Positions 5,983-62,314 of a DNA stretch of 64,000 nucleotides are shown piece after piece. The notes under the pieces are model-generated. The model was not told the DNA's origin. It did not search any database and saw only the letters and a program-made list of their open reading frames with translations. The stretch comes from a virus. The position numbers and the translations under genes are program-made. The stretch covers positions 32,001-96,000 of the IMG/VR virus record IMGVR_UViG_3300035698_018653; one strand, 5' to 3'. The stretch's first letter is position 1, and each line of letters begins with the position of its first letter.

Positions 5983-6706
5983 CGAAAAACTATATGACAA
6001 TATAAATTACTTTATTGGTAAGCCTCAAAGTAAAGAGCAAAGACCCTGGGGGCATGGACAATTAAGATACGGAACACAATGCTGCGCTATTGGATATGCA
6101 TTAGGGTATCCTGATTTTGAAAGCGTAAGAGATATTTTAGGGTTTAAAAATAAAGGAAAGGGTATTAAACCAATAGTAGGAGCAAATAAACAAATTGAAA
6201 GATTATGTATGAATAGCAAATATTGTAATAGATTTCCAAATGGTGTTTTGGAAATCGGCGCAGGAAGAGGTGAAATCTCTGTATCAATTGCTTCAAAATG
6301 TTGTAATGTATATTCAATAGAACCAAATGAAAATGCCCTAATATTAGCTTATGATACGAGACAAATTTTTAAAATAGACCTTTATCATCTTGAAAAATAT
6401 TATAATTTAATAAATAAAGATTTAGCCAATGCATTAAAGTATATTGAATGGGATAAAATAGATACAATCATAATGGATGAAACAATAGAACATATTACAG
6501 AAGATGATTTTGAATATTTTCTTTTAGAAGTAAGAAGGAATTTTAAAGGATTGTTTATTATAACAAATTGGATAGATGCACACCCAATAGAATTAAAAGG
6601 TGATTTTCATATAAGAAAAATTGACGATGGCGTATATGATAGACTTTGTAAATATGGTAAAACAATTTATAGGAATGGAAGTCATCTAGTGGTGGAGTAC
6701 AAATGA
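5948..6706 (+). CDS. Class I SAM-dependent methyltransferase
   Basis: VLEIGAGRG, IEP, ETIEHI. Confidence 0.8.
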   Translation: MLNGESIQKMYNEKLYDNINYFIGKPQSKEQRPWGHGQLRYGTQCCAIGYALGYPDFESVRDILGFKNKGKGIKPIVGANKQIERLCMNSKYCNRFPNGVLEIGAGRGEISVSIASKCCNVYSIEPNENALILAYDTRQIFKIDLYHLEKYYNLINKDLANALKYIEWDKIDTIIMDETIEHITEDDFEYFLLEVRRNFKGLFIITNWIDAHPIELKGDFHIRKIDDGVYDRLCKYGKTIYRNGSHLVVEYK

Positions 6707-8109
6707 TAAGAAAAATATTTGATTTAAATAATCTAAAAGAATGTCAAGAAGTCGAAGGGATAACAGATCTTCTCTTTAAAGATAACCTAAACATAAAAGA
6801 TATAGAGAAGTCAAGGGGCGAGTTTGCAGGTTATTTTGTAAAGAACAATAAAGTATATCTATTTAGAGATAGAGTTGGTGCAAGAAATATTTATTATCGT
6901 TTAATAAAAAACAAGCTGTATGTTTCGACAGACATATGGTGGATAGCAAAACAAATTAAAGCAAAGATAAATGACCTGTATTTATCTTACGAGTATTTTG
7001 AATATCAGGTTCCATTCGGCGCAGCTACAGTTTATGAAGGTATTTTTAAAATTATGCCATCGATTATTAAAAGTTTTTATATTGATGGTGTTGATGAACA
7101 TAGATATTGGAGACTTGATTTTTGGGGAGAATGTGGAGAAGAGTTTAATTCGGGTAGCTTAAATATGATAATTGATGATGCAGTTAGATTTAGAAGAGGT
7201 ATTTTAGCAAGATTGGGGAAAAATTATACTTCATATTTAAGCGGTGGAATAGATTCTAGTTGTGTAACAGAATTATTAAATCCAGAAGAAAGTTTTTCGG
7301 GTATCTATAAAGACGAAGAGTATTCTGAAAAGAGTTTTATAAAAGCATTAAAAAGAAAAACAAATTATGTTGATATTACAGAAAAGGTATTTAAAAATTT
7401 TCTAAAAGATATTTCTAAAATAATGCCTGATCCAATGTGTGGACTAGGTGTTATTTCTCAAGCTATGGTTGCTTGTAAAGCAATGAGTAAGGGATATAAT
7501 TATGCTTTTACGGGAGAAGGTGGGGATGAAATTTTTGGTGGTTATATTTGGAATATGGTTGGAAGTAAATTAGATGAATATTTATTTTTATTAAATGACA
7601 ATAAATATTTTATAAGATATGAAAAAACATTGGAAAAATTTAATAAAGAATTGTTACCGTATTTTGTAGCTATAAGTTTAAATCGGGGAGCAAAAAGACA
7701 TATAGATAATATTCTTGATAGATGGAATTATAAATTGTCTCCTGCAAATAATATGATGAAAATAGCAATTGAAGTTAGTTTACCCGCTATATTAACGGTA
7801 GACGAATGTGTTGGAAAATATACTAGCGTAATGCCTGTATCTCCATTAGTAGACCATAAAATAATTGAGTATGTTGCTTCTGTTGATGATAAAGAAAGAA
7901 ATATAATTCCAAAATATTTTTTAAGGCAATCAATGCAAGGGTGTTTACCAAGTAAGATAATAAATAGATATGATAAGATGGGATTTCCAGTGCCTCACGA
8001 AAAGTGGGATTGGAGCGAGTTTGGATATGACAATATGAGAAGGGAAACGTGGGCCGAATTAAATATAAAAATGTTAAAGGAGAGATTAAATGAACCAGGA
8101 ATTTCTTGA
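6703..8109 (+). CDS. Asparagine-synthase-like amidotransferase with truncated glutaminase domain
   Basis: GEFAG/RDRVGAR remnant, LSGGIDSS PP-loop, TGEGGDEIFGGY, SPLVD, KMGFPVP; no N-terminal Cys. Confidence 0.85.
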   Translation: MIRKIFDLNNLKECQEVEGITDLLFKDNLNIKDIEKSRGEFAGYFVKNNKVYLFRDRVGARNIYYRLIKNKLYVSTDIWWIAKQIKAKINDLYLSYEYFEYQVPFGAATVYEGIFKIMPSIIKSFYIDGVDEHRYWRLDFWGECGEEFNSGSLNMIIDDAVRFRRGILARLGKNYTSYLSGGIDSSCVTELLNPEESFSGIYKDEEYSEKSFIKALKRKTNYVDITEKVFKNFLKDISKIMPDPMCGLGVISQAMVACKAMSKGYNYAFTGEGGDEIFGGYIWNMVGSKLDEYLFLLNDNKYFIRYEKTLEKFNKELLPYFVAISLNRGAKRHIDNILDRWNYKLSPANNMMKIAIEVSLPAILTVDECVGKYTSVMPVSPLVDHKIIEYVASVDDKERNIIPKYFLRQSMQGCLPSKIINRYDKMGFPVPHEKWDWSEFGYDNMRRETWAELNIKMLKERLNEPGIS

Positions 8110-8893
8110 TAAATATTGTAATTGGAATGGATTAAAAACAATATTTTTAACCTTTGATATAGATTGGGCACCAGACTATATGATAGAAAATGTAGTAAAA
8201 ATATTAAGCGAGTTTCCAGAGATAAAAGCAACATTTTTTATTACTCATTATGAACAAATATTACAAGAAATATATAAGAAATATGAAATTGGTTCTCATA
8301 TAAATCTAGGCAATAAACATTCAAGTGAATATTTCGAGAAAGCAAAAGAATATTTTGATTATCAACATGGCAGAGATATTCTGAAATATACTGGAAATAG
8401 ATTTCATAAATTAAACTACTCTTATGGTGATTTAATTAAATTAAAAAATCTAAACTATCTTTATGATGCTTCTAATTTGAGATTTGGTTGTGAGTATCTT
8501 ATTCCAAATTTAATGATCGAGACAGAACTTGTTTTAATTCCTTATTTTTGGGAAGATGGAATTCATGAAAACATAAAGACAAGAAATATTTATTGGAGTA
8601 GAAATAATATATGGGAAGGCAAAGGGTTAAGGGTTTTAAATTTTCATCCATTGAATTTATATTTAAATAATTCTGACAGTGGGTTAAGAGTGCAATTTTT
8701 AAAGGACATTAAAGATTGTAATATTAATTTATTAGATTGCCCTAAAGAATTAGCAGATCAATACGTTAATAACGAAAGTGTAACACATAAGATGTGTGAT
8801 AATTTTAAAGAGTGGTTACAAAAGATAAGGGATGAAAAAATTAATACTTATACTTTAGGCGAATTAGCAAAAGCCTTTAAGGAGAGTATATGA
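8090..8893 (+). CDS. WbmS-like polysaccharide deacetylase/deformylase
   Basis: LTFDIDWAPD, ATFFITH, EIGSH, PYFWED, NFHP. Confidence 0.75.
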   Translation: MNQEFLDKYCNWNGLKTIFLTFDIDWAPDYMIENVVKILSEFPEIKATFFITHYEQILQEIYKKYEIGSHINLGNKHSSEYFEKAKEYFDYQHGRDILKYTGNRFHKLNYSYGDLIKLKNLNYLYDASNLRFGCEYLIPNLMIETELVLIPYFWEDGIHENIKTRNIYWSRNNIWEGKGLRVLNFHPLNLYLNNSDSGLRVQFLKDIKDCNINLLDCPKELADQYVNNESVTHKMCDNFKEWLQKIRDEKINTYTLGELAKAFKESI

Positions 8894-9819
8894 ATTTAGC
8901 GGTAGCCGGTAATCAGTGGATAACGAAGTATTTAATTGATAGGTTAATAGAAGTAAATTTAAAACCTAGCCTTATAATTAATTTAGATTCTAATTTTAAA
9001 AATATAAGTGGCTATTGTGATTTTTCAGACGGTAGCCCATATATATCTATTTATGACGAAATAAAATTGTATAGTCCAAAAAGTTATTCTTTAAAAAACG
9101 ATAAAGAATTATTATCTTGCGATATTGATATACTACTTGTCTTTGGTTGGCAAAGATTAATTCCCGAATGGCTAATAGATCACTGTAAGCTTGGAGCGTT
9201 TGGAGTACATGGATCAATTCATGAATTACCAGACGGAAGAGGTAGAGCTGTGTTTAATTGGACATTAATAAATGAATGCTATGATTATTATCATACTTTT
9301 AAAATGTATATGTTAAAGCTTAATAAAAATATTGATGATGGAGAAATAGTTGACAAAAGAGAATTTGATCTTTTAGAAACAGACAATATTAAAACCCTTT
9401 ATCATAAAAATTGTATCGTATCGAGTGATATGTTTATAGAGAATATCCCAAAGATAATTAATAGTACAGTAAAATACAAAGAACAGCCAAAAAGAAAAAA
9501 AGAAAAGACACTTTATTATGAAAAAAGAACACCGGAACAAAGTCAAATAAATTGGGAAAATTCTGCCCATTCAATACTTTATTTTATAAAAGCATTAACT
9601 GACCCTTACCCTAATGCTTTTAGTTATATAAAGGACAACATAATAAAAATAAAAAAAGCGTCAGGTTTTGATAGCAGAATAAAGTTTAAGGGTAATGTTG
9701 GTGAAGTTGTAGATGTATTTCCAGATGGAGAATTTTTAGTAATAACAGAAGAGTTCCCTATTTATATAGAAGAGTATAGTTATAATGGTAAAATTAAAAA
9801 AGGAGATGTATTAAGGTGA
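8890..9819 (+). CDS. Sugar N-formyltransferase (Fmt/ArnA-like)
   Basis: GWQRLIP, GVHGS..LPDGRGRA, DDGEI, PYPNAF C-terminal domain. Confidence 0.85.
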   Translation: MNLAVAGNQWITKYLIDRLIEVNLKPSLIINLDSNFKNISGYCDFSDGSPYISIYDEIKLYSPKSYSLKNDKELLSCDIDILLVFGWQRLIPEWLIDHCKLGAFGVHGSIHELPDGRGRAVFNWTLINECYDYYHTFKMYMLKLNKNIDDGEIVDKREFDLLETDNIKTLYHKNCIVSSDMFIENIPKIINSTVKYKEQPKRKKEKTLYYEKRTPEQSQINWENSAHSILYFIKALTDPYPNAFSYIKDNIIKIKKASGFDSRIKFKGNVGEVVDVFPDGEFLVITEEFPIYIEEYSYNGKIKKGDVLR

Positions 9820-10745
9820 AAATATTGATTACCGGAAACGCTGGCTTCATCGGAAGTAATATAGCGGATAGATTAATAGAAGAAGTACATAAAGTTGCCG
9901 GAGTAGATAATTTTTTAACTGGCAATATTGAAAATATAAATGAAAAAGTACATCAATATTATTATTCTTTAACAGATGAAAAACAAATGGATATTGTTTT
10001 TAGAAATTTTAAACCGGAAATGGTTTTCCATTGTGCTGCCTCTTATAATGATGCAGATAATTGGAATAGAGATATAGAAACAAATTGTGTTGGAACTTCA
10101 AATATAGTAAAGTGTTGTCAGAAGTACAATGTTAAAAAATTAGTTTATTTCCAAACAGCTTTATGCTATGGGGATTTTATTGAGCAACCAATAACCTTAA
10201 GTCACCCAATCAATCCTACAAGATGTTCTTATGCTATCACTAAAACAACGGCAGAGCAAATAATTGATATGAGCGGAATACCTTGCCTTACTTTTAGAAT
10301 GGCAAATGTTTATGGGCCGAGGCATTTGAGCAGCTGTATTCCCACTTTCTATTTAAAGCTAAAGAATAGAGAAAAAACCATTATTACAAATACCAAAAGA
10401 TCATTCGTATATATTTCAGACTTAGTTGATTTAATCGTTAAAACAATGGACAGTAAGATTACTGGCGTTTATCATTTATCTACATTACAAGAGGTTTCTA
10501 TTAAATTTATATTTGAAGCTATGGCAGAATTGATGAATATAGACATAAGAGATATTGAAGTTAATTATCAAGAGCCAAAAGAAGATAATGTAAAAACAAT
10601 ATTGCTTGATAATTTAAAAACAAAAATGGATTTTTCTGACTGGTACCCTAAAGTTGGCATAATAGATGGGTTAAAAAGATCAATAGAGTGGTATAATAAA
10701 AATAAATTTGATAAAACATTTACTCATTTGAAGTTAGGGAAATAA
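9816..10745 (+). CDS. NAD-dependent epimerase/reductase, Bordetella WbmG/WbmH-like extended SDR
   Basis: ITGNAGFIG, HCAASY, YFQTALCYG, SYAITK, ANVYGPR, C-terminal FTHLK. Confidence 0.8.
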   Translation: MKILITGNAGFIGSNIADRLIEEVHKVAGVDNFLTGNIENINEKVHQYYYSLTDEKQMDIVFRNFKPEMVFHCAASYNDADNWNRDIETNCVGTSNIVKCCQKYNVKKLVYFQTALCYGDFIEQPITLSHPINPTRCSYAITKTTAEQIIDMSGIPCLTFRMANVYGPRHLSSCIPTFYLKLKNREKTIITNTKRSFVYISDLVDLIVKTMDSKITGVYHLSTLQEVSIKFIFEAMAELMNIDIRDIEVNYQEPKEDNVKTILLDNLKTKMDFSDWYPKVGIIDGLKRSIEWYNKNKFDKTFTHLKLGK

Positions 10746-10746
10746 A

Positions 10747-11217
10747 ATGGAAGGCTTATATTTTGGTTTGATGGACAACTTTGTTATGATAATTGGTGCT
10801 TTTTTTGGTTTGAATTTGGAGAGACTTTTTTCAAAAAGAGACAATGGATTGGGGGCGGTTATAGGTGCGGGGATAGGGAATGCTATTTCAGACTTTTTAG
10901 GTGGTGTAGTAGAGGGCAATATGTCACTAGCCTATGGAACTGCACTTGGGTGCATGCTTTGTTTAGCGATTATTCCACTTTTTGTTATTATTATTAGATT
11001 TAAAAAACCATCTGCGATAGCTGAATATAGATTTCAGTTAGATAAAGATTTATTTATAACGGCAAAAGAAAAAAGAATAAAAGGCAATGAAGGAAAAACA
11101 ATAGAGAACACTACAAGATACATTTTGTCAATTTTGTTTTCAAAAATATTGATACATAAAGAAAAGCATGAAAGAGTAAATGTATTAACCCTATGTCAAA
11201 AGGAGAAGATAAAGTGA
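10747..11217 (+). CDS. TMEM65-like membrane protein
   Basis: FGLMDNFVMI and GAGIGNAISDFLGG, three hydrophobic segments. Confidence 0.55.
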   Translation: MEGLYFGLMDNFVMIIGAFFGLNLERLFSKRDNGLGAVIGAGIGNAISDFLGGVVEGNMSLAYGTALGCMLCLAIIPLFVIIIRFKKPSAIAEYRFQLDKDLFITAKEKRIKGNEGKTIENTTRYILSILFSKILIHKEKHERVNVLTLCQKEKIK

Positions 11218-11465
11218 TATACTTGATAGGGTTTGGATGTTTTTTATTGGGGTATATACTTTCATCTATAAGGTGTATTATATGGTATAATAAATTAATT
11301 AATAAACAGGGAAAGCGCTTTGAAGGGGTAATGAAAAAAGTAGTTTGTCCACATATATCGCCAAGAATAGGTGATGGAGAACAATATTGTTGTGACCAAC
11401 AAAAGAAATTAACCGGAACACATCATATGCTTGATGATAATAAATGGATATATTTAATTAATTAA
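11193..11465 (+). CDS. Hypothetical membrane-anchored protein
   Basis: N-terminal hydrophobic helix; overlaps the upstream gene. Confidence 0.45.
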   Translation: MSKGEDKVIYLIGFGCFLLGYILSSIRCIIWYNKLINKQGKRFEGVMKKVVCPHISPRIGDGEQYCCDQQKKLTGTHHMLDDNKWIYLIN

Positions 11466-11477
11466 GGAGAAGATAAA

Positions 11478-11633
11478 ATGAGCAATAACGAAAAAGATTT
11501 AGAAAAGATTTTTGAAGGGCTTTGGAAGGATAAACTGTTTGATAAATGGTTTAATGGTGGAAATACAAAGGCAAAAGATATTTGTAAAAAGTCTTTTATG
11601 TTTGGTGTAAAATTAAAGGAGAAAAAAGAATAA
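11478..11633 (+). CDS. Small hypothetical protein (51 aa, not in ORF track)
   Basis: AAGGAG RBS, ATG at 11478, TAATG coupling to the next gene. Confidence 0.55.
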   Translation: MSNNEKDLEKIFEGLWKDKLFDKWFNGGNTKAKDICKKSFMFGVKLKEKKE

Positions 11634-12601
11634 TGAATTTTGTAAATGTCTCTGACACAATGGTTGGTGTAAAAGACGGAAAGAATATTACAAATTTTCC
11701 AGGCATATATCCGTTCTTTGACGAAAGAAATAAGTTTACTAACATAATTGGTGTCGGGAATAAAAACGGAATAGATAAAAATATTGATTTGCTAAAAATA
11801 AAAAAAGTATTTAAAGGGTGTAAGTTTGTTTTTAATGGTCGTCTTGCTTCTTACCTAATAAAGAACTGGGATTTTATAGTTTCTAATTTTGATGGTATTA
11901 TGGGTGCGGAGTTAAATAAAAATCATCCGAAGTCATTGAATATGGTTCATTCTTCCATGGCACGAAGCATGCCATATAAGGGTTTTTATTGGGAACCAAC
12001 AAACGAAAAAAAGGATTTTGATTTTAGTATCTTATCTAAAATAAATGATTATAAGAATAAGAGATGGGGGCGTTGTTTAAAATTAATTGATATTCTCTGC
12101 ACCTCCAAGCTTAAGGGCATACTTATAACGCAAAGTGGTGATTTAAATAAGGTTTCAGAGCTGAAACAGCACGTTAAGAGCGGATATTTAAAGATATCTA
12201 ATAATATAGACGAAAGAGAGTTTCACAGGCTTCACAACAGGGCTAGAGTCGGTATATTCCCAAATACACTGGATAGCTTTCCCAAGCATATGATAGAGAG
12301 TATACTTTCAAATAAGCCAATAATATTTTCGTCTGATTTAACTATGGGCAAAGAGATTGCGTTAGAGTTTGGTATAAAGCTAAATTTTGACAATAGAAGA
12401 TCTTATAAGAGAGTAAAGACTTTTTTGAGAGAGGGATATAAAGAATATACTACAAATAGGATAAAATATATTTGGAAGTATTCATTTGAAAGCGTATCTG
12501 CTTTTTGGGCTTCTGAAATTAATAGATTATTTAAAACAAAATTTAAAAGAGTTTATATGTTTAATCATTATCAAAGGTTAAAGGAAAATAAATTGATATG
12601 A
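11633..12601 (+). CDS. GT-B (GT4-like) glycosyltransferase
   Basis: C-terminal VGIFPNTLDSFPKHMIESILSNKPII signature. Confidence 0.65.
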   Translation: MNFVNVSDTMVGVKDGKNITNFPGIYPFFDERNKFTNIIGVGNKNGIDKNIDLLKIKKVFKGCKFVFNGRLASYLIKNWDFIVSNFDGIMGAELNKNHPKSLNMVHSSMARSMPYKGFYWEPTNEKKDFDFSILSKINDYKNKRWGRCLKLIDILCTSKLKGILITQSGDLNKVSELKQHVKSGYLKISNNIDEREFHRLHNRARVGIFPNTLDSFPKHMIESILSNKPIIFSSDLTMGKEIALEFGIKLNFDNRRSYKRVKTFLREGYKEYTTNRIKYIWKYSFESVSAFWASEINRLFKTKFKRVYMFNHYQRLKENKLI

Positions 12602-12834
12602 ACAAATTTAAAAAGTGTTGTGATTGCGGAACGTACGAGCATCAAGTATTAATGCCAATTAAGGGTAGGGTTCAGGGAATAGATTTATGTATATCTCATA
12701 TAGTTGCCGCCTTAAATGCCGGTAATGTAATAACAGAAGCTTCTTGTTGCGGACACGGTAAAATAGACGGAAGTATAATTTTAGAGGATGGAAGGGAATT
12801 AGTGATTAAGAAATGGAAAAAAGGAATAAATTAA
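12598..12834 (+). CDS. Small Tyw3-like SCCGH phage protein
   Basis: IDxCI..IV.ALN..G..T.ASCCGH pattern. Confidence 0.5.
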   Translation: MNKFKKCCDCGTYEHQVLMPIKGRVQGIDLCISHIVAALNAGNVITEASCCGHGKIDGSIILEDGRELVIKKWKKGIN

Positions 12835-12838
12835 TATT

Positions 12839-13657
12839 ATGGGAAAGAATTTTTTAGACAAAGATCACACTAAAGATTCGGACATAAAGAATTTTATACA
12901 AGAGAGTAGGATTGAGAATAGAAAGCCTTTCTCCCGTGACCTGATTTCCATTTGTGTATCCATAAAGAACAGAAGTAGATTTAAGATTGGCAAGAAAGAG
13001 TATAAGCCGTTTGTTCATTTTATCCATTCCATTGTTAGGCTCCCAAAGCATTTAATGAATATTGAATTGATCATAGCAGACTTCTTTTCTGATGATTATC
13101 CGTTAAAAGAATGGATTCCTTTCGAGTCTCAACACATTAAGTATAAGATAGTGTCTGTCCCTGGTCCATTTTCGAGAGGAAAGGGGCTAAATGCGGCCGC
13201 TAAGCAGTCTAAAGGCAAGTATCTATTCTTTACCGACGCAGACATGCTATTAAGCACACAGGTGATTGAGAGGGGCTTACATTATGCTAAGAAAAGTAAG
13301 GCTTTCTTTCCCATTGCTTTCCGCCATGTTGATGAGCAATTAAAAGTTGGAAGGTGGTTTCAAAGCGGATTCGGAAATATGTTTTTAAGGAGGAGTCAGT
13401 TTGAGAAACGTGGTGGATATATGGAGCACGATAGGTGGGGGCGAGAGGACTTTTATTTTCATAGACAACTTGTTCAGAAGAGTCAAGTAAAATGTGTAAG
13501 GGAACAAATACAAACCTTCTATCATCAATTCCACCCAGACGATGTTGTTTGGAAAAATAGATTTGTAGAAAAAAATGTTTTCAAAGAAATCCAGGCATCG
13601 TATACTATTAGTAAAGGAAATAAAGAGCATTTTGATAAAAATAGGAGCAAGAAATGA
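12839..13657 (+). CDS. GT-A glycosyltransferase, chondroitin GalNAc-transferase / GT7-C-like
   Basis: FSRGKGLN, FFTDADM (DxD), FFPIAF, GFG, GGY, WGRED. Confidence 0.75.
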   Translation: MGKNFLDKDHTKDSDIKNFIQESRIENRKPFSRDLISICVSIKNRSRFKIGKKEYKPFVHFIHSIVRLPKHLMNIELIIADFFSDDYPLKEWIPFESQHIKYKIVSVPGPFSRGKGLNAAAKQSKGKYLFFTDADMLLSTQVIERGLHYAKKSKAFFPIAFRHVDEQLKVGRWFQSGFGNMFLRRSQFEKRGGYMEHDRWGREDFYFHRQLVQKSQVKCVREQIQTFYHQFHPDDVVWKNRFVEKNVFKEIQASYTISKGNKEHFDKNRSKK

Positions 13658-14187
13658 ATATTAAAAACGACACCAAAAAGATAAGGAAGGCAGTAAGAGA
13701 TAATTTTACATTTAAGTCAGCTATACCGTATGTAAATTTTATGCAGACTATAGGGAAGGTTGCGACAGATAAAATAAGGATAGAGTTAAAGCTAAAGAAT
13801 GAGGGTAATTTAAATATTGGAACGTTGTATTTACATTATAGCATAAAAGACAAGAGTTATATAATAAGTTCAAAATCTGGGTGCTTTACCTATAAACATT
13901 TTAAGGATAAAATTTTTAGTGTTTTAAGTGAGGTAAATCATGGAACAAAAATAGTCAATAAGACAGATAATATTTTTATGGATAATAATTATTTAATTAA
14001 AAGAAGAGAAGCAAAAAAGTTAAATCAATTACAGTTAGCGAAATTATTAGGAAAGAATGTAAAGCAGATACAAAGATATGAAATAAGCGGAAGTGTTCAG
14101 AATCCTTATGGCAGAACATTAAGGGATTTAGCTATAATACTTGATCTTGATTTAAATAAGTTATTTATGTTAGGGAAAAAGAAATGA
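13654..14187 (+). CDS. XRE-family HTH protein (C-terminal HTH)
   Basis: KRREAKKLNQLQLAKLLG...IQRYE...P....L..LA. Confidence 0.75.
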   Translation: MNIKNDTKKIRKAVRDNFTFKSAIPYVNFMQTIGKVATDKIRIELKLKNEGNLNIGTLYLHYSIKDKSYIISSKSGCFTYKHFKDKIFSVLSEVNHGTKIVNKTDNIFMDNNYLIKRREAKKLNQLQLAKLLGKNVKQIQRYEISGSVQNPYGRTLRDLAIILDLDLNKLFMLGKKK

Positions 14188-14807
14188 TAGATAAAATATT
14201 ACTTGCTATATGGATAGGGGTAATTATATTTGCCTGGTGGTATCCACTTAGAAAAAGAAAAAAGAAAGGTGAGTTTCAAGACACAAGCGATTATCAAAAA
14301 TGTATAAAGAAAAATAAAGAAGGAAAATATTATCTTGATAAAAATGCCACAAAGATAATATTTGGTGATTATGATAAACCATTTAAAACTCCTCACTCTA
14401 AAATATGGGATGAAAAACCAATGAGTTTTGATAAATTTTTTAAAGAGCTAAACAATAATATAATAGATCACGGATGGGGAGTTGAGTTTAAATCCATTAA
14501 AGATGGAGAAGAGAAAAAATATATTCAATGTAAAAAATGTGGGTCAAAAAGACAAATAATAAGTACGGTTCCGGCTTTCTGTCTTAATTGTGATAATGGA
14601 TTATATGATCTTCCTTGTGAAGTTGATATAGAAAGTAAAATGGGTGATATATCACAAGCAATGATAGAGGATTTTGAAAAAAGAATATTAGATGGAGAAA
14701 GCGATATAAAGAATCCAAAAGGATTATTTAATAATCGTGAAATGATTGCTAATGCAATTAAAAACTCAAAAGAATTTAAGGAGAGATATGGGAAAGATCA
14801 AGATTAA
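14184..14807 (+). CDS. Hypothetical protein with N-terminal TM and Zn ribbon
   Basis: Hydrophobic N-terminus; CKKC...CLNC. Confidence 0.5.
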   Translation: MIDKILLAIWIGVIIFAWWYPLRKRKKKGEFQDTSDYQKCIKKNKEGKYYLDKNATKIIFGDYDKPFKTPHSKIWDEKPMSFDKFFKELNNNIIDHGWGVEFKSIKDGEEKKYIQCKKCGSKRQIISTVPAFCLNCDNGLYDLPCEVDIESKMGDISQAMIEDFEKRILDGESDIKNPKGLFNNREMIANAIKNSKEFKERYGKDQD

Positions 14808-15162
14808 TGAAGTTATGCTAGAGAGATTAAAGCTTAATCATTCGGTAATAATATCTAAAGACGCTATTGGTCAAGCAATGAAACCAATTTTTAATACATT
14901 ACCTGATCAGGACGCTATAAATATATTATTTAGAAATTACGTTGCTTCCGAAGTTCAAAAGAAAATTCAAATACAATACCCAAAGGATTGGTGGAATGCC
15001 TTTAAAGAAAGATGGTTTCCAAATTGGTTAAAATGGAGATATCCAGTTATATATAGAAAGCATGATTTTTCACCTAAAGTACTTTATCCTTTCATGAAAA
15101 TAAGTTTACCTAACGAAAGGCGGTTTCCAATAGTTATAGAATCAATAGAGGAGAAAGAATAA
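14746..15162 (+). CDS. Hypothetical phage protein
   Basis: PKDWWNAFKERWFP..L...YPV motif; coupled to its neighbours. Confidence 0.5.
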   Translation: MLMQLKTQKNLRRDMGKIKINEVMLERLKLNHSVIISKDAIGQAMKPIFNTLPDQDAINILFRNYVASEVQKKIQIQYPKDWWNAFKERWFPNWLKWRYPVIYRKHDFSPKVLYPFMKISLPNERRFPIVIESIEEKE

Positions 15163-15722
15163 TGACTTGTATAATTGGCTGGATTAAAAACAAAAAGATG
15201 TATATGGGTTGTGATAATATCGGCTCTAATGGGTCTATAGTTATACAAAGGAATGACAGTAAAATATTTACAAGAAATAACGAAATGATTTTTGGATATA
15301 CTTCATCTTATAGAATGGGTCAGCTTTTGAGATATTCGCTTAAGATTCCTTTGCATGATCCCAAGATACCTGATGACGAATATATGAGTACGAAGTTCAT
15401 CGATGAAGTTAGGAATTGCCTAAAAGATGGTGGCTATATGATTAGAGATAATAATGAGGAGTCTGGTGGAACATTTCTTGTTGGATATAAAGGTAAGCTA
15501 TATCTTATCTCTGATGATTTTCAAGTTGGAATTCCTTCTGATGGTTTTTTCTCCGTTGGTTGCGGAATGTATTATGCATTAGGGGCAATGAAAGTTCTTG
15601 TAAAATCAAATAAAAATCCAGTGGCGATAATAGAGGAGGCGTTGTCTATCGCAGAATATTATAGCCCCGGTGTTCGTGGACCATACCAGATAGATCACTT
15701 AGATATAGGGGAGAAAAAATAA
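15162..15722 (+). CDS. HslV / proteasome-beta-like Ntn hydrolase
   Basis: N-terminal MTCIIG (Thr nucleophile), GCD, SKIF, VGCG...ALGA. Confidence 0.8.
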   Translation: MTCIIGWIKNKKMYMGCDNIGSNGSIVIQRNDSKIFTRNNEMIFGYTSSYRMGQLLRYSLKIPLHDPKIPDDEYMSTKFIDEVRNCLKDGGYMIRDNNEESGGTFLVGYKGKLYLISDDFQVGIPSDGFFSVGCGMYYALGAMKVLVKSNKNPVAIIEEALSIAEYYSPGVRGPYQIDHLDIGEKK

Positions 15723-16693
15723 TGAAAAGAGTTTTAGTTACAGGTGCCAGCGGGTTCGTCGGGTCACACTTACTTGACTTACTTCTTGACGATATTGATT
15801 GTTCTGAATGTGAAGTTCACGGTACAATGAGGTACAGGAGCAATCTTGATAATATAAAACATAACATAGGAAAAGATTGCCTTAAGCTGCACACCTGCGA
15901 TTATACAGATCAGAAGTCTGTCGATGAGCTTATTAAGGAGGTTAATCCACATAAGATATTTCACCTGGCAGCTCATTCCTTTGTTCCTGATTCGTTTCAT
16001 ATGCCTCACTATATGCTTGATAATGTAAAGATGACTTTAAATATTTTGGAGTCGGTTAAAACGCACGCTCCAAATTGTAAGGTACATATCGCAGGTAGTT
16101 CCGAGGAGTATGGGATGGTAGAAGCAAGCGAATGCCCTATTGACGAAACGCAACCATTAAGGCCGATGTCACAATATGGTGTCTCTAAAATTGCTTGCGA
16201 GTATCTTGCTTTTCAATATCAAACAACTTATAATATAAAGGTAATAGTAACCAGGAGTTTTAATCATACTGGACCACGCAGAAATTCAAGATTTGTTTGT
16301 AGTCATTTTGCTCGTGAGCTTGCACTTATGAATATGGGCAAGAAAGCGTATTCGATAGAGCATGGCAATCTTGACGCTATACGTGACTATACAGATGTAA
16401 GAGATATAGTAAGGGCGTACTGGGATTTGTCTGAACTTGAAGAAGAAATTAAATATCCAATTAATCTTTGTAGCGGTAAAGGACATAAGATAGAAGAAGT
16501 ATTAAATATGCTTCAGAGTATGTCGGGCATTTCCCCTCAAAGGAATTGGGTTGAGAGCAGGATGAGACCCTCTGATGTTCCGTTGCTTGTTGGTAGTAGT
16601 GAGAAAGCAAAGATGCTTATAGGGTGGAAACCGGAAATTAATTTTAAGAAAACATTAGAAGATCTATATGATTATTGGCTTGAGAACGTATAG
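15722..16693 (+). CDS. GDP-mannose 4,6-dehydratase / GDP-6-deoxy-mannose reductase (Gmd/Rmd family)
   Basis: VTGASGFVG, HLAAHSFV, SSEEYG, YGVSK, FNHTGPRR, GNLDAIRD, RPSD. Confidence 0.9.
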   Translation: MKRVLVTGASGFVGSHLLDLLLDDIDCSECEVHGTMRYRSNLDNIKHNIGKDCLKLHTCDYTDQKSVDELIKEVNPHKIFHLAAHSFVPDSFHMPHYMLDNVKMTLNILESVKTHAPNCKVHIAGSSEEYGMVEASECPIDETQPLRPMSQYGVSKIACEYLAFQYQTTYNIKVIVTRSFNHTGPRRNSRFVCSHFARELALMNMGKKAYSIEHGNLDAIRDYTDVRDIVRAYWDLSELEEEIKYPINLCSGKGHKIEEVLNMLQSMSGISPQRNWVESRMRPSDVPLLVGSSEKAKMLIGWKPEINFKKTLEDLYDYWLENV

Positions 16694-16708
16694 TTAATAA
16701 AATAATTT

Positions 16709-16737
16709 TTCAACTTTTTAAATATAGTGTATATTGT
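16709..16737 (+). promoter_or_regulatory. Putative promoter TTCAAC-N17-TATTGT for the NAD/kinase operon
   Basis: Variant of the recurrent motif (TGTATATTGT), upstream of the AAGGAG RBS of 16777. Confidence 0.5.
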
Positions 16738-16776
16738 TTATAGATAACATTTAACCTTTTAAAAAGGAGAAGCAAG

Positions 16777-17577
16777 ATGAAAGAAAGTACTTGTTTGTTT
16801 GTAATTGACCCTCAAGTTGACTTCTGTGACCCCGTAGGAAACTTATTTGTACCGGGAGCAGACGAAGATATGAGGCGTTTATCGTCAATGGTAATAAATA
16901 ATAAGGGAGAGATAGATGATATTCAGTTGACTCTTGACTCCCATCACTATGTCCACGTGGCGCATCCTTGCTCGTGGATAGACAGTAAAGGAAAGCATCC
17001 TGACCCGTTTACAGTTATTACAGTAGAGGACGTTGAGAAAGGAACGTGGATGGCAACTAATCCTGGGTTCAGAGATAGATATAAGGAATACGTACAGAAG
17101 CTTCAGGACAATAATCGATACGTACTTTGTATCTGGCCTTATCATTGCCTTATTGGTAGCCCCCATGCCGCTATCTCTCCTGATTTTTACGCCTCCATGA
17201 TTTCCTGGGAACGTCTGTATGCTGTAGCCGGAAAGACCACTAAGGGTTCAAATATATTTACCGAGCATTACTCTGCTGTTAAAGCAGACGTACCGGATGA
17301 CGAAGATGTAGGAACTCATTTAAATACCGATGGGCTGATTAATGTTTTAAAGAAACACGATAGTATCCTTATAGCTGGAGAGGCACTGTCACATTGCGTG
17401 GCCTCTACCATTAGAGATATAGCTTCTGAGTTCTCTGACGAGCAGGTTAAGAAGTTTGTCTTGCTTGAGGATGCTTCGTCACCCGTTACCGGTTTTGAGA
17501 AGTTGGGAGAGGATTTTGTAAACGATATGGTTGCGAAAGGAATGAGAATTTCCAAAACAACTGAATATTTTAAATAG
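16777..17577 (+). CDS. pncA: Nicotinamidase (isochorismatase family)
   Basis: IDPQVDF, LDSH, WPYHC, TKG, AGEALSHCV catalytic and metal-binding motifs; next to NAD genes. Confidence 0.85.
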   Translation: MKESTCLFVIDPQVDFCDPVGNLFVPGADEDMRRLSSMVINNKGEIDDIQLTLDSHHYVHVAHPCSWIDSKGKHPDPFTVITVEDVEKGTWMATNPGFRDRYKEYVQKLQDNNRYVLCIWPYHCLIGSPHAAISPDFYASMISWERLYAVAGKTTKGSNIFTEHYSAVKADVPDDEDVGTHLNTDGLINVLKKHDSILIAGEALSHCVASTIRDIASEFSDEQVKKFVLLEDASSPVTGFEKLGEDFVNDMVAKGMRISKTTEYFK

Positions 17578-26257: not shown

Positions 26258-26333
26258 CGTGGTGTGGCGAAGCCTGGTTCAACGCACCGGATTTTGGGTC
26301 CGGCACTCGCAGGTTCGAATCCTGTCACTACCG
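26258..26333 (+). tRNA. tRNA-Gln(TTG), atypical
   Basis: Anticodon arm CCGGA-TTTTGGG-TCCGG, T-arm GCAGG-TTCGAAT-CCTGT, acceptor CGTGGTG/CACTACC with C1:C72 mismatch, G73. Confidence 0.75.
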
Positions 26334-26357
26334 AACAATTTAACAGAGGGGGAATAA

Positions 26358-54219: not shown

Positions 54220-54311
54220 ATCAGTTTAAAAAAAGGAATACTTAGTGGGTTTATTTTGTTTTTACTTTAGTATAAAAAAAAGATTCCAATTATAAGGAGG
54301 TGGAAAATTAT

Positions 54312-55295
54312 ATGAGCAAAGTATCTTTGAAAAATATTCTGGCAGAACTTTCTAAACAGCAAACTACTGCTAGTGGTCTAGGTGGCGATTTCTTACCCCT
54401 GCCGATTGCTAACAGGTTTATTGACTTTGTCAATGACGCTAATTATTGTAGACAGTTGTTTAAGGTTCTGACTATGACCTCTAAGACTCTAGACATGCCC
54501 AAGATTCTCTCACGGGCCTCTGTTTATTATGAGCCTACTGAAACTACCGCTGCGGTACGTACCACTTTCTCTACCGGTAATATCCGCTTCACCGCTAAGA
54601 AATTGTTCTCGAAGCTTGAGGCCAGTTCCGAAGTGTTGGAAGATGCGGCTTTTGATATGGAGCAGATAATTCGGGACCAGGCTGCCGAAGCTACGGGTCA
54701 GGCCGAAGAAGAGGCAATGATGGTCGGTAACACGGCTGCCACTGCCAACGCTACGACTCCGAACAATGCTACTGCTACTAACTGGTACCAGAAGGACCAT
54801 CGACTCATCTTTGATGGGTTGTTTACTATCGGTGGAGCTTCCGGCGCTGCTACGTCTGTAAATGCTGGTGGAGTGGTTGCTTCGTCTTCCATTCTACGTC
54901 AGGTGATGTATAACCTTGGCAAATATGGCCGGGTAATGTCCAGGCTGGTTGCTTTCTTGAACCCCTGGAGCGCTAACCAGATGCTTGACGATGACAAGGT
55001 TGTAACCATGGATAAGGCTGGAAACCGTGCCACTATCTTTACCGGCGCTTTATTCCTGCTCTATGGTAAGATCAACGTTATCGATGAAGTTTATGCCCCT
55101 GATGGTCAGGGTTGCATGACCCCCAAGAATAACCCCATCATAGCTGACCGGAGAAAGATTCGGGTAGAGCGTGAGAAGGAAATTCAGCAGGACATGTGGC
55201 GTTGGGTTGTTAGTGAACGCATCGACTTTAAAGTTGAGCATAATGACGCAGTCGCCTTGGTGACTAACCTTGACCTTCCTGACGCTGCAAGTTAA
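54312..55295 (+). CDS. Major capsid protein (HK97 fold)
   Basis: AAGGAGGTG RBS favours ATG 54312; GGDFLP, SSEVLED, EEEAMMVG, ERIDF...AV; followed by a terminator. Confidence 0.92.
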   Translation: MSKVSLKNILAELSKQQTTASGLGGDFLPLPIANRFIDFVNDANYCRQLFKVLTMTSKTLDMPKILSRASVYYEPTETTAAVRTTFSTGNIRFTAKKLFSKLEASSEVLEDAAFDMEQIIRDQAAEATGQAEEEAMMVGNTAATANATTPNNATATNWYQKDHRLIFDGLFTIGGASGAATSVNAGGVVASSSILRQVMYNLGKYGRVMSRLVAFLNPWSANQMLDDDKVVTMDKAGNRATIFTGALFLLYGKINVIDEVYAPDGQGCMTPKNNPIIADRRKIRVEREKEIQQDMWRWVVSERIDFKVEHNDAVALVTNLDLPDAAS

Positions 55296-55311
55296 GATTT
55301 TGTTCTTAACC

Positions 55312-55348
55312 AAAAGGGGGCAGGGCTTTAACTGTCCTGCTCCCTTTT
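55312..55348 (+). terminator. Intrinsic terminator after the capsid gene
   Basis: AAAAGGGGGCAGGGC/GTCCTGCTCCCTTTT stem. Confidence 0.85.
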
Positions 55349-55369
55349 AATATTTAAAGGGAAAATAAA

Positions 55370-57646
55370 ATGAGTCTAAAAGATAGCGAAATAAAAAACT
55401 TTCAAGATGGAAGCACGAGTGTTAAAGACGGTGACATAAAGAACACTAGTGATTACCCAGTTGATCCTATTACAGCTGACCTGAACGTCCCAGACACCCT
55501 TGAGCAGTCATTTGGAAAGCAGTTCAGTAAGATTCCCTACGTTAAAAGAAAAAAGATGCTTGCAGACAAAAGGAATTTATATGCTCCTACCCAGGGAGTA
55601 ATGATTAGACAAGATGAAACCAACTTATATTTAGCGATTGATAAGAAATTTCTCAAGAACCTACAGCCGAGAGATATTGCCGCTTACGTATCTATTGCCG
55701 CTTCAGGATTCTTTACAAATAGTTTTAGCGATATATCGAAGTATAAAGTAAATAACAGAGATGGTTGTGCAATATTCATGAAAAATGTAGTTCACTATAG
55801 TGGTGGCAGATATTGCGCTTTACTCTGGGCACACATAATGGCTTCGCTCATGAAGGTGACAATCTTTACAAATATGAAGCCACCTTTTATAAAAGATTTT
55901 GAGCATATGCCATTTAAAGAAAATATACAGTGGGCTGTTGACGGAAGACTTGGAATGCATCTAAAGAAAAATGATTTTAAATTTACTTTAGGGATTCCTA
56001 ATGATGTAGGACAAGCGGCAATTACTTATTCTGAGAAATGGAATATACCTTGCTATATGACAATATTTGAATCACCCAATTTTGTAAGAGAGTATCGCAG
56101 AGGAATAGATTCAGAGGAAAAGTTTTGGGTTGAGTATAAAAAATGTATGAAAAAAGCAGATGGTATTATAGGAATATCCAATATAAGTGGAAGTAAGGCA
56201 AAAGAATGGATAGAGGCCGATGGAGTAAAGTGTCCGCCTGTTGAAATTATATATCCACCACTTAATCAGCCTATCGCAGATATGGTTGTAGATAAAGATA
56301 TTCACGAAGCAAATGAGATTTGTTATATAAGTAGAATGACCGGATATAAAAACCCTCTTTTAATGATAAAGGATATATGCAAACTAAGACAACCGCCTGA
56401 CGTAATTAATCTAATAGGGCGTGCAGCCGGAGGTACGGTCAATGAAATAAATAAAATGAATAAGCAATACAAGGGTAGAGTAAAGATAAAAATATATGAA
56501 GCGGTAAGCGATATAGAAAAATTTATTATCCTTAAGAGAAGTAAGTTGATTGTATTTCCTTCGACATTTGAGGGCTTTGGAATGTCGCCAATGGAAGGAT
56601 TTTATATGAGTAAGCCGGTTATCGCTTATGACCTGCCAGTACTTAGAGAGGTATATGGTAATCATATAAATTATGTTCCGGTAAACGATTCTAAAAAATT
56701 AGCGAAAGAAGTTGAAAAACTTTTGGAAGATAAAAAAGAGAGAGAGAGATTGGGCGAAGCAGGAAGAGCTCACGTAATAAGATGGTGTTTATATGATATG
56801 TGTCGTGACAGAATAAAGGAAGTATTTCCTATATCTAAAAAGCTTTCCTTATCTGTTGGCACTATCGTACTTAATGGCGCTGAGTGGATTAAACTAGGAT
56901 TGAAAACTATCTATCCAAAAGCAAAAGAAATCATAATTGTTGAGGGCGCTGTTGAGGACTACGCAAAGAATAATCCAGATATGGTAAAAGACGGATGTCA
57001 TTCTATAGATAATACTGTTGAGATAATTAAGAATTTTCCTGACCCTGAAAATAAGATAAAGTTTTTTGCTTGTAACGGAAGTCCTTGGCAGAACAAACAA
57101 GAGATGCAGAATAAGATAGCAGAAAATATAACTGGTGACATATTCCTCAAGCAAGATAGTGACGAATGTTATCTACATAAAGATGTTGATAGAATTGTAA
57201 ATGAATTCGAAAGTGACCCTGACCTTTTTATATTTAGGTATAAGTTCAATCACTTCTGGCATAGCTTTAAACAAATAGCGATAGGCGGACAATGGGAAAG
57301 CAAGATGGTCAGGTGTTGGAGATGGAGAGATGACTTCAGATATCAGGGTAGAAGTTTTAATGTTATGGTAGATAAGGAAGGCAAGTCAGTTGATAGGCCA
57401 AATTATAAAGTAAAAGAAGTTGACGATAGACTTGTATTTCATATGTCATATGTAAGCAAGAAACCAGAAATGATTCGTGCAAAATTAAATTACTATAAAA
57501 ATAGAGGAATAGAAACAAACGTAAAAGATACTTACACCGGATGGAAGCGGGGCAATCCCACACAGCCCACGGCCGGAGGTGGTACCGTTAAGGCTTTTGC
57601 CGGAGAGATGCCGAAACTTTTAACAAGGATAGCTGATGAATACTAA
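55370..57646 (+). CDS. Bifunctional glycosyltransferase (GT4 + GT2 fusion)
   Basis: FPSTFEGFGMSPMEG...PVIAYD (GT4); SVGTIVLN, IVEGA, QDSDE (GT-A). Confidence 0.88.
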   Translation: MSLKDSEIKNFQDGSTSVKDGDIKNTSDYPVDPITADLNVPDTLEQSFGKQFSKIPYVKRKKMLADKRNLYAPTQGVMIRQDETNLYLAIDKKFLKNLQPRDIAAYVSIAASGFFTNSFSDISKYKVNNRDGCAIFMKNVVHYSGGRYCALLWAHIMASLMKVTIFTNMKPPFIKDFEHMPFKENIQWAVDGRLGMHLKKNDFKFTLGIPNDVGQAAITYSEKWNIPCYMTIFESPNFVREYRRGIDSEEKFWVEYKKCMKKADGIIGISNISGSKAKEWIEADGVKCPPVEIIYPPLNQPIADMVVDKDIHEANEICYISRMTGYKNPLLMIKDICKLRQPPDVINLIGRAAGGTVNEINKMNKQYKGRVKIKIYEAVSDIEKFIILKRSKLIVFPSTFEGFGMSPMEGFYMSKPVIAYDLPVLREVYGNHINYVPVNDSKKLAKEVEKLLEDKKERERLGEAGRAHVIRWCLYDMCRDRIKEVFPISKKLSLSVGTIVLNGAEWIKLGLKTIYPKAKEIIIVEGAVEDYAKNNPDMVKDGCHSIDNTVEIIKNFPDPENKIKFFACNGSPWQNKQEMQNKIAENITGDIFLKQDSDECYLHKDVDRIVNEFESDPDLFIFRYKFNHFWHSFKQIAIGGQWESKMVRCWRWRDDFRYQGRSFNVMVDKEGKSVDRPNYKVKEVDDRLVFHMSYVSKKPEMIRAKLNYYKNRGIETNVKDTYTGWKRGNPTQPTAGGGTVKAFAGEMPKLLTRIADEY

Positions 57647-58720: not shown

Positions 58721-58722
58721 TT

Positions 58723-59418: not shown

Positions 59419-59430
59419 GGAGAAAGTAAA

Positions 59431-61861: not shown

Positions 61862-62314
61862 ATGGCTATACAGTTCGGGCAAGGTGTATTGGTTGGGTCA
61901 GGCCAGGAGTTTGGTTATCTTCAAGATGTAACGTTAGATTTTGAATTTGAAGATGCAGAACTTCACGCAGGTAACGGCTTATATCCCATTGATGTCAGAA
62001 TCCATAGTGCCAGTATTTCTGGTAACGCAGGATTTGCTGATATTGATGTAGAAGCTTTCCAACATATTGTTGGGGGCACTAAGAGCGGTACTTCGCTTTT
62101 ACTGACCGGCACGTCACGTCCCAGTTATTTTCAGCTGGTGTTTACGTTGACTACTGACAGTATTAGTTTTATCGTAACACTGTATAGAGTCAAGTCAACT
62201 AAGTTGTCTATGGCTTTTAACAGAACAAATCACTTTATTCCCAATTTTGATTTTAAAGCGTATGCCAGATCAGATGGTAATGTCGGCATAATTGACTGTG
62301 GTGATGTAAGTTAA
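61862..62314 (+). CDS. Major tail (tube) protein
   Basis: Strong AAGGAGGTG RBS, beta-rich 150 aa, precedes chaperones and tape measure. Confidence 0.7.
   Translation: MAIQFGQGVLVGSGQEFGYLQDVTLDFEFEDAELHAGNGLYPIDVRIHSASISGNAGFADIDVEAFQHIVGGTKSGTSLLLTGTSRPSYFQLVFTLTTDSISFIVTLYRVKSTKLSMAFNRTNHFIPNFDFKAYARSDGNVGIIDCGDVS

Follow-up and report, generated by a model that had tools for sequence, protein, structure and literature searches.

On balance, a two-domain glycosyltransferase encoded directly behind the major capsid gene of an uncultured, low-GC phage appears to O-glycosylate the phage's own capsid and tail tube, most likely at the C-terminal serine of each protein. The DNA comes from IMG/VR record IMGVR_UViG_3300035698_018653 (127 kb, 74% complete), of which we analyzed positions 32,001 to 96,000, a stretch of 64,000 nt that we refer to as the window. 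An earlier note on this DNA had raised the general idea of a phage enzyme that glycosylates its own virion, and this idea is supported by synteny in multiple capsid families and by serine ends resembling those of mycobacteriophage Che8.

In the window, the capsid gene is followed by a 74-base gap, by the glycosyltransferase gene, and then by head-tail adaptor, neck, tail-tube, and tape-measure genes (Table 1). ORF calls and Pfam matches confirm that a 758-aa two-domain glycosyltransferase sits between the capsid and neck genes, as had been noted before. The capsid ORF starts at a GTG, and the ATG at 54312 is in frame with it as codon 5. Its product matched the Phage_capsid profile PF05065 (3.4e-19, 69.7 bits, cut-off 24.2) and TIGR01554 (7.9e-21, 74.6 bits, cut-off 27.5), with the match ending at residue 150-162, the start of a loop insertion discussed below. 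An AlphaFold model of the protein (pLDDT 78, pTM 0.75) found its best solved match in the DT57C/T5 capsid (Z 19.3, rmsd 3.2 over 245 residues) and matched HK97 1ohg at Z 17.5. Profile and predicted fold (N-arm, E-loop, spine helix, P and A domains) both identify the product as an HK97-type major capsid protein. Five unrelated ORFs are also inserted behind the capsid gene in the window. The hairpin in the gap behind the capsid gene is a weak call as an attenuator, because the number of terminator-like sites in the region (3) was not above that in shuffled sequences (4.0 +/- 2.1). The tRNAs and middle genes of the window gave no clue to the phage host. One enzyme homologue, on an 18-kb contig, carries a Hodarchaeales bin label, and we treated this contig as a binned viral contig, not as a host assignment.

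Table 1. Features of the window, in window coordinates
Feature	Position	Strand	Basis or remark
Sugar-nucleotide and glycan-tailoring locus	2123..17577	+	Context only
Major capsid protein, HK97 fold, 331 aa	54300..55295	+	PF05065, TIGR01554, AlphaFold model, DT57C/T5 fold match
Thr/Asn-rich loop, capsid residues 143-162	54726..54785	+	Directly after spine helix
Capsid tail LDLPDAAS, last residue Ser331 (codon 55290-55292), proposed O-glycosylation acceptor	55269..55292	+	
Terminator-like hairpin and T-run, possible attenuator	55317..55347	+	In 74-base capsid-enzyme gap
GT4 + GT-A glycosyltransferase, 758 aa	55370..57646	+	PF00534 and PF00535 matches
Enzyme N-terminal region, residues 1-130	55370..55759	+	No family match
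GT4-type GT-B domain, ~residues 131-485	55760..56824	+	PF00534, EX7E, Foldseek
Divergent GT-A (GT2-like) domain, ~residues 490-758	56837..57643	+	PF00535, DxD motif
Probable major tail (tube) protein, 150 aa, end ...CGDVS, proposed second acceptor	61862..62314	+	phrog_88, weak

The first 75 residues of the enzyme are variable and predicted to be disordered, and a small beta/alpha unit follows at about residues 77-116. PF00534 (Glycos_transf_1) was matched at residues 313-467 (4.6e-24, 85.3 bits, cut-off 26.4), and the glutamates E401 and E409 of the EX7E motif of retaining GT4 enzymes were invariant in 22/22 aligned homologues. Foldseek matched this domain to GT4 enzymes at 3e-14 and below, with TM scores (target) of 0.63-0.76. 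TarM was found as a PDB profile match (4.5e-13), and the best solved relatives include TarM, PglA, PimA, and BshA. The Pfam score, the modeled GT-B fold, and the EX7E motif agree in assigning this domain to GT4. Its best sequence matches are generic, far below family cut-offs, and include teichoic-acid and lipid-linked glycan enzymes. The top NCBIfam match, SdgA (4.3e-12), scored 45.4 bits against a cut-off of 800, and we rejected membership in the SdgA/SdgB family on this basis. The C-terminal domain matched PF00535 (Glycos_transf_2) at residues 545-627 just below the cut-off (1.5e-4, 22.2 bits, cut-off 23.3), and a precomputed table lists the same family for 15 of the 21 close homologues (P0003-P0023). 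Its DxD motif (D596-x-D598-E599) was invariant in the aligned homologues (D596 and D598 in 22/22) and aligns with the DADE of GmaR, the best solved relative of this domain (6.5e-5 for a profile of the whole protein, 0.002 for one of the domain). The GT-A domain family comprised 104 cluster representatives at E<=1e-30. The model of the enzyme is globular, and no transmembrane or lipid-carrier features were seen in it. Our literature search found no paper describing a fused GT4 + GT-A family or a terminal-serine rule.

A tblastn search with the capsid protein and the enzyme gave no match in 50,697 phage records, and single-protein scans of IMG/VR found nothing; relatives surfaced through alignments. 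Enzyme relatives were located at 78 loci, 75 of which were assessable, the other three having too little upstream DNA. A major-capsid gene lay just upstream at 63 of the 75, and these capsids belong to at least four families. The upstream gene was of the window type and on the same strand at 30 loci, with a capsid-enzyme gap of <=143 bases at 16 of them. At 32 more, the upstream ORF was assigned at E<=1e-5 to a PHROG family of major head proteins (21 phrog_10/617, 3 phrog_1623, 7 phrog_283/267, and 1 capsid-protease fusion), and the 63rd capsid, at locus L048, was recognized by a custom capsid profile. No capsid gene was seen upstream at 8 of the 75 loci. Among 185,579 species genomes, a single full-length copy of the enzyme was found, on a 6.5-kb contig also carrying the capsid gene, and all full-length copies that we found were on contigs of viral type. 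We conclude that conserved synteny across several capsid families lends strong comparative support, at the level of gene order, to the idea of capsid glycosylation.

The last residue of the capsid was associated with the enzyme. Where a GT4-type fusion adjoins a window-type capsid gene, 37 of 38 distinct capsids end in serine and the exception ends in threonine; 16 further metagenome loci with the fusion gave 15 serines and one threonine. In the same family, a final serine is also present in 6/13 capsids that lack the GT4 fusion. The second capsid family had a terminal serine at 25/25 loci with the enzyme vs. 0/5 without it. For background, 9.2% of 1108 other ORFs end in serine. Exceptions occur beside other enzyme relatives, the phrog_1623 capsids ending in ...YTG and the phrog_283 capsids being mixed. 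The tree of the second family revealed three separate losses and none in the opposite direction, and the metagenome scan of the window-type family yielded no additional independent gain or loss of the enzyme. Independent-pair sign tests of terminal serine against enzyme (p = 1 in the window-type family, p = 0.5 in the second) have no power, since enzyme presence changes only three times per capsid family. The coat protein of P22, which also has the HK97 fold, is described in the published account as having an outward-facing C-terminus (PMC9962691). We also considered the portal, which ends in serine in the window, as a further acceptor and rejected it, as this residue is not conserved in relatives.

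The probable tail-tube protein matched phrog_88 at 3.1e-4 and is encoded between the neck and tape-measure genes. Its homologues in 11 relatives all end in (G/E/D)DxS, making 12/12 with the window. A homologue was found in 0/10 records of relatives without the enzyme; these relatives have another tube family, so the 12/12 count stands without a negative control.

We envisage the 758-aa protein as a soluble, virus-specific, bifunctional enzyme that pairs a retaining GT-B domain of the GT4 type with a DxD-containing GT-A domain and would be made late, together with the structural proteins. We infer that, in the host cytoplasm, it most likely O-glycosylates the major capsid protein and the tail tube, the two repetitive proteins of the virion surface. 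The first sugar would be attached by one domain and then extended by the other, the order of the domains and the sugar being part of the proposal. The acceptor would most likely be the last serine of each protein (...PDAAS in the capsid, ...GDVS in the tube), and that of the capsid would sit on a short tail whose counterpart in other HK97-fold capsids lies on the exterior.

The enzyme could instead act outside the virion, for example on a polymer of the host envelope, such as teichoic acid, LPS, or capsule, in superinfection exclusion, the post-capsid junction merely tolerating insertions. The solved relatives of the GT4 domain named above would fit such a role, the large glycan locus of this virus could serve cell-surface modification, and the five unrelated ORFs share the insertion junction of the window. 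However, a chance site would not be expected to keep one enzyme family beside at least four capsid families at 63/75 loci, and an envelope target leaves unexplained why a terminal serine follows the enzyme. The lack of transmembrane or lipid-carrier features in the model, as well as the lack of full-length copies in cellular genomes, also argues against an envelope target, which we consider unlikely.

The earlier note had placed the glycan elsewhere on the capsid, proposing that the enzyme primes or extends a glycan on a Thr/Asn-rich loop at residues 143-162, GNTAATANATTPNNATATNW; the bonds would be O-links on threonine or N-links on N-A-T. The segment, with six Thr and two N-A-T, is present exactly as claimed. 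It is an insertion of ~20 residues relative to the canonical GDG...GIL turn, and it is not a chance low-complexity run, since its position and its core motif, GDxxH(T/L)ATAx-TxxxATxx-NW(Y/F), are kept in every member of the capsid family that we aligned. Its richness in threonine, the good conservation of its Thr/Ser positions, and the recurrence of an N-x-T where the second sequon lies in several relatives (found in L006, L007, L021, L025, and L026) could all be taken to favor it as an acceptor. Almost all members of the capsid family also have some glycosyltransferase beside the capsid gene, be it the GT4 fusion, a longer fusion of 845-942 aa, or a member of a separate GT2-like family of 380-470 aa, so the loop and "a glycosyltransferase" cannot be separated cleanly. 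The co-occurrence of loop and enzyme nevertheless failed in both directions: L183, L196, and L207/L208, which have no glycosyltransferase within 4-5 kb after the capsid gene, retain the loop, as do five records (16-76% complete) without a detected enzyme family, whereas the second capsid family adjoins related enzymes yet has a plain NGDGxGQPLGI turn and no loop. The loop is also predicted to be ordered (pLDDT 83-90), unlike typical flexible acceptor tails, and its near-invariant His147 is missing from the window capsid. The position of the two N-A-T sequons is not conserved in the capsid family, being window-specific or sporadic, and Pfam scans of the window genes revealed no oligosaccharyltransferase or NGT-type enzyme; the N-linked chemistry that the sequons implied was thus not borne out. 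Being ordered, family-wide, and untied to the enzyme, the loop is not supported as the glycan acceptor, and we regard its glycosylation as distinctly improbable. In these sequence comparisons, the feature that tracks the enzyme is the C-terminal serine, not the loop. The terminal serine is the likelier attachment site because the serine ends of capsid and tail tube match those of sugar-coating mycobacterial phages. Glycosylation of modified bases of the phage DNA can be largely dismissed: although DNA-hypermodifying phage glycosyltransferases have been described in a preprint (bioRxiv 10.1101/2023.12.21.572611), the 127-kb record, which is 74% complete, yielded no gene of the thymidylate-synthase/dCMP-hydroxymethylase family, a Tet_JBP search was silent, as were its controls, and the head-operon position and capsid linkage would be unexpected for DNA modification.

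Returning to the proposed glycosylation of terminal serines, we also looked at where the sugars might come from. The locus at 2-17 kb encodes a sulfotransferase, methyltransferases, two GT2 enzymes, an asparagine-synthase-like protein, a WbmS-like deacetylase, a formyltransferase, an epimerase, and a GDP-mannose 4,6-dehydratase, and the record contains additional GT4-like genes upstream of the window. The locus genes are real, but the role of sugar supplier that had been suggested for them is not supported: the locus does not constantly accompany the enzyme, as only 1 of 5 complete relatives with the capsid-enzyme pair had any NDP-sugar epimerase/dehydratase gene. It is possible that the locus supplies the virion glycan in this particular virus. 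More speculatively, and in our view less likely than not, the virus-restricted GT4 + GT-A fusions may read a minimal, portable last-residue serine tag on capsid and tube, and may have moved with this tag between at least two sequence-unrelated capsid families of uncultured tailed viruses. In this virus, the 35-kb locus for sulfo-, formyl-, methyl-, and amido-tailoring would then turn the primed sugar into a complex acidic glycan coat.

Glycan coats matter for how particles adsorb, how stable they are, and how host or animal defences recognize them. In those parts of the literature that our search covered, self-glycosylation of phage virions is chemically shown only for a few mycobacteriophages. 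The present case suggests that the same outcome, sugar on capsid and tube, is reached by a large group of uncultured low-GC phages via a single-gene enzyme of unrelated origin, and that the targets may be marked by a C-terminal tag of one residue. If this is true, virion self-glycosylation would be a widespread modular trait of environmental phages and not a mycobacteriophage curiosity, a simple sequence rule could predict glycosylated virions in metagenomes, and tag and enzyme together might serve as a two-part tool for decorating HK97-type protein cages.

The closest parallel is virion O-glycosylation in mycobacteriophages, described for Che8, through gp108-110, and also for Corndog and Myrna (PMC11256854, PMC12363180, PMC13445384). 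Che8 is an HK97-fold siphovirus in which, according to the published accounts, soluble phage-encoded glycosyltransferases modify the capsid and the tail tube (PMC12363180, PMC13445384), the same two proteins that are the predicted targets here. Both Che8 proteins end in Gly-Ser (capsid gp6 in ...TGS, major tail protein gp11 in ...SDGS), and the window proteins end in ...AAS and ...DVS. Freeman et al. reportedly located the Che8 glycan at the C-terminus in 2023; the structural papers covered by our search say nothing about the acceptor site in Che8. The enzymes differ, those of Che8 being a GT2+methyltransferase, a GT2-like protein, and a GT25, all unrelated to the window enzyme (hhalign probabilities of its family against gp108, gp109, and gp110 of 0.2%, 1.0%, and 0.2%). 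Che8 carries these genes at the far end of its genome, whereas the window has a single fused gene adjoining the capsid gene, and host and virus lineage are different, the window virus being low-GC, over 127 kb, and uncultured.

Among bacterial enzymes, the staphylococcal Ser-Asp repeat O-GlcNAc transferases SdgA and SdgB, as well as TarM, have the GT4 GT-B fold in common with the window enzyme, and SdgB and TarM were among its fold or profile matches. SdgA and SdgB glycosylate protein serines in the cytoplasm. Unlike them, the window enzyme showed no match to a DUF1975-type trimerisation domain, and its proposed acceptor differs. GmaR, the GT-A O-GlcNAc transferase of Listeria flagellin to which the C-terminal domain is related, modifies Ser/Thr residues of a surface protein that self-assembles. 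The similarity to GmaR is weak and confined to the nucleotide-binding half, and a TPR or anti-repressor part is missing from the window enzyme. Autonomous capsid glycosylation has also been described for chloroviruses and other giant viruses (PMC4691112). As that source presents them, these viruses likewise decorate their own major capsid protein with their own cytoplasmic glycosyltransferases and sugar-nucleotide enzymes, but they do so in eukaryotic hosts, on a double jelly-roll capsid, with N-linked glycans at atypical sites and with unrelated enzymes.

The capsid protein and the 758-aa GT4/GT-A glycosyltransferase encoded directly 3' of its gene resembled nothing in 50,697 deposited phage genomes. 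The protein collection contained 30 homologues of the enzyme, and a profile built from 22 enzyme homologues matched 77 IMG/VR loci. Across 185,579 species genomes there was one full-length copy, whose 6.5-kb contig includes the capsid gene as well; the remaining cellular matches to the profile covered only part of the GT4 domain. We assessed 75 of 78 enzyme loci (L-numbers denote metagenome or IMG/VR loci with relatives of the enzyme or capsid), leaving out L062, L077, and L078, in which the upstream DNA was too short. A capsid gene of the window-type family, comprising relatives of the window capsid, lay upstream on the same strand in 30 loci. In 32 further loci, an upstream ORF was assigned at E≤1e-5 to one of the PHROG major-head families (21 phrog_10/617, 3 phrog_1623, 7 phrog_283/267, and 1 capsid-protease fusion), the comparison having taken 61 of the 119 listed upstream ORFs, those nearest the enzyme. 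The upstream capsid gene of L048 was recognized by a capsid-profile match, and L040, L045, L061, and L070 were outside the PHROG scan, with match statistics duplicating those of L039, L044, L060, and L069. No capsid gene was found upstream in eight of the 75 loci (L028, L030, L044, L056, L058, L063, L066, and L075); L075 has portal and Mu-F genes there. The capsid-enzyme gap was ≤143 bases in 16 of the 30 window-type loci, most of the others having a single 150–230 aa ORF between the two genes, and L259, the closest relative recovered, whose capsid is 68% identical, shares the gene order of the window. Given this recurrence, we conclude that the capsid gene and the enzyme form a conserved module and are no accident of the window genome.

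The module lies within a late operon in which every gene is on the + strand. GC content is ~32% across the window and peaks locally at 42% over the capsid gene (54001–56000). The five ORFs between the enzyme and head-tail adaptor had zero homologues in any related locus examined, and the adaptor gene comes directly after the enzyme gene in the nearest IMG/VR relative. The Laminin_G_3 protein is a possible lectin-like decoration of the head or neck; L182 likewise encodes a Laminin_G_3 protein downstream. The intein in the Mu-F-like protein bears a DUF559/MTES_1575 endonuclease domain. Elsewhere in the window, at 23305–26334, a tRNA-Ile is followed by an RtcB ligase (24851–26071) and a tight tRNA-Asn/tRNA-Arg/tRNA-Gln cluster.

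Late-operon features in window coordinates
Feature	Position	Strand	Remarks
Large terminase	44900–46615	+	
Portal	47697–49145	+	
Mu-F-like minor head protein	49354–51648	+	Split by intein; Intein_splicing and Hint matches
Probable scaffold/protease-like protein	51955–53283	+	
ORF of unknown product	Between scaffold/protease-like and capsid genes	+	
Major capsid protein	54300–55295	+	
Glycosyltransferase	55370–57646	+	758 aa
Five small or unknown ORFs	57636–59835	+	Include Laminin_G_3 protein
Concanavalin-like Laminin_G_3 protein	58723–59418	+	231 aa
Head-tail adaptors and neck protein	After the five ORFs, before tube gene	+	
Probable tube protein	61862–62314	+	
Tape measure	Downstream of tube gene	+	

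The predicted structure of the enzyme (pLDDT 83) begins with a disordered, variable N-terminus (residues 1–75) and a small unit, continues with a GT-B domain matching GT4 enzymes, and closes with a C-terminal GT-A domain whose best solved relative, weakly similar, is GmaR. Residues E401/E409 and D596/D598/E599 were invariant in all 22 homologues, and both halves therefore appear active. Against 1.84 billion representatives, the GT-A domain had 1601 matches at E≤1e-3, 104 of them at E≤1e-30, which makes its family a sizeable one; members occur fused as in the window, alone at ~250–300 aa, or within very long proteins. For this domain, the window protein matches no Pfam family above cut-off. The homologue in L016 (1112–4276), at 1054 aa, is ~300 aa longer than the rest.

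The earlier note proposed that the enzyme glycosylates a Thr/Asn-rich capsid loop (residues 143–162), and its quoted sequence, with two N-A-T sequons and six Thr, matches the window exactly. The capsid model (pLDDT 78, pTM 0.75) has an HK97 fold, nearest to the T5-like DT57C capsid (Z 19.3, 23% identity), and places the loop directly after the spine helix (120–142) as a predicted ordered segment (block pLDDT 90, 83, and 88). Starting from the capsid protein, we recovered 57 IMG/VR loci, and every complete member carries the loop motif. Nine loop-bearing loci (L176, L182, L183, L189, L196, L197, L200, L207, and L208) lack the enzyme family in 3.3–5 kb of downstream DNA, and the enzyme profile matched none of the five whole records, 16–76% complete, behind L183, L200, L196, L182, and L211. 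The second capsid family, which also adjoins enzyme relatives, has an ordinary NGDGxGQPLGI turn in place of the loop. Because the loop is kept without the enzyme and the enzyme without the loop, the loop is a structural trait of a single capsid family, one that the enzyme does not need and that does not depend on the enzyme. Loop and this enzyme family did not always co-occur; the loop is an unlikely acceptor but may be an additional one. Residue 147 (54738–54740) is Ala in the window and His in at least 90% of close relatives; the window loop, with Asn where close relatives have acidic residues, is the most Asn-rich version seen.

Most enzyme-free loop loci carry a different, unnamed GT2-like enzyme of ~380–470 aa directly after the capsid gene, in place of the GT4 fusion; this replacement was seen in L176, L182, L184, L187, L189, L193, L197, L198, L200, and L210. 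A UDP-glucose-dehydrogenase-like NAD-binding protein follows it in L176 and L182. Members of this GT2-like family also make up the C-terminal portion of 845–942-aa GT4 fusions in L178, L181, L185, L188, L194, and L204. No glycosyltransferase follows the capsid gene in L183, L196, or L207/L208.

The capsid C-terminus did vary with the enzyme. Counting distinct window-type sequences, we found a terminal Ser in 37 of the 38 capsids adjoining a GT4-type fusion (the exception being Thr) and in 6 of 13 without one; dropped rows (L166, L172, L177, L191, L201, L202, L203, L206, L209, L210, and L211) had a cut or frameshifted capsid or <1 kb of downstream DNA, or were duplicates. Fusion-free tails often keep the Ser plus an extra residue (...TTVSF and ...TVSFS vs. 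...TTIVS). Further metagenome loci gave 15 Ser and 1 Thr among 16 with the fusion, and 3 Ser among five without. For the second family, the terminal residue was Ser at 25/25 loci with the enzyme and 0/5 without (≥2.8 kb downstream each; one more locus was undecidable). Its tree has three changes of enzyme state, with L227 nested in an enzyme-bearing clade, and serine changed in the same direction as the enzyme every time, never the opposite. Against a link between enzyme and serine, independent-pair tests, with at most three pairs each, gave p = 1 (window-type) and p = 0.5 (second family). The probable major tail (tube) proteins of the window and 11 homologues, all from enzyme-bearing viruses, end in (G/E/D)DxS (12/12), against a background of 102/1108 other ORFs (9.2%) ending in Ser; among 10 records of enzyme-free relatives, none had a homologue of the tube protein to compare. 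Two other capsid families beside enzyme relatives also speak against the reading, as they do not follow the pattern. The C-terminus of the P22 coat protein, also HK97-fold, faces outward (PMC9962691), making the capsid tail a plausible exposed site. Our literature search found no paper on serine-end tags with neighboring glycosyltransferases.

We consider it most likely, with moderate confidence, that the fused enzyme would act late, in the cytoplasm, carrying out two steps in the O-glycosylation of two virion proteins, capsid and tube, at their terminal serines. What the earlier note observed is confirmed, and its interpretation is supported in part: the conserved enzyme-capsid pairing favors capsid glycosylation, with the loop an unlikely acceptor. 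The main rival is that the enzyme targets the host envelope. Glycosylation of phage DNA has no support, and no thymidylate-synthase-family gene was found in the 126.9-kb IMG/VR record (estimated 74% complete), of which the window is bases 32001–96000; a Tet_JBP search gave no match, nor did its controls.

The 2–17 kb locus previously assigned to sugar supply does contain such genes; it is not a constant partner of the module, as an NDP-sugar epimerase/dehydratase gene occurs in only one of five complete relatives with the capsid-enzyme pair, so the module must normally draw on host sugar nucleotides. Three more GT4-like matches at 14641–18380 of the whole record, ~14–17 kb before the window start, extend the glycan locus to roughly 35 kb. 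This large locus may elaborate the virion glycan or serve another purpose.

In mycobacteriophage Che8, a known case of virion glycosylation, the glycans reportedly lie at protein C-termini, a placement attributed to Freeman et al. in 2023. The Che8 capsid protein ends in ...NKTGS and the major tail protein in ...YSDGS, the same terminal-Ser pattern as in the window. Glycosylation of both capsid and tail proteins of the Che8 virion is described in passages of three reports (PMC11256854, PMC12363180, PMC13445384). The Che8 enzymes (a GT2+methyltransferase, a GT2-like protein, and a GT25) have no specific relation to the window enzyme family. By analogy, shared serine ends and unrelated enzymes suggest that the window system works like that of Che8 yet is not a member of it.
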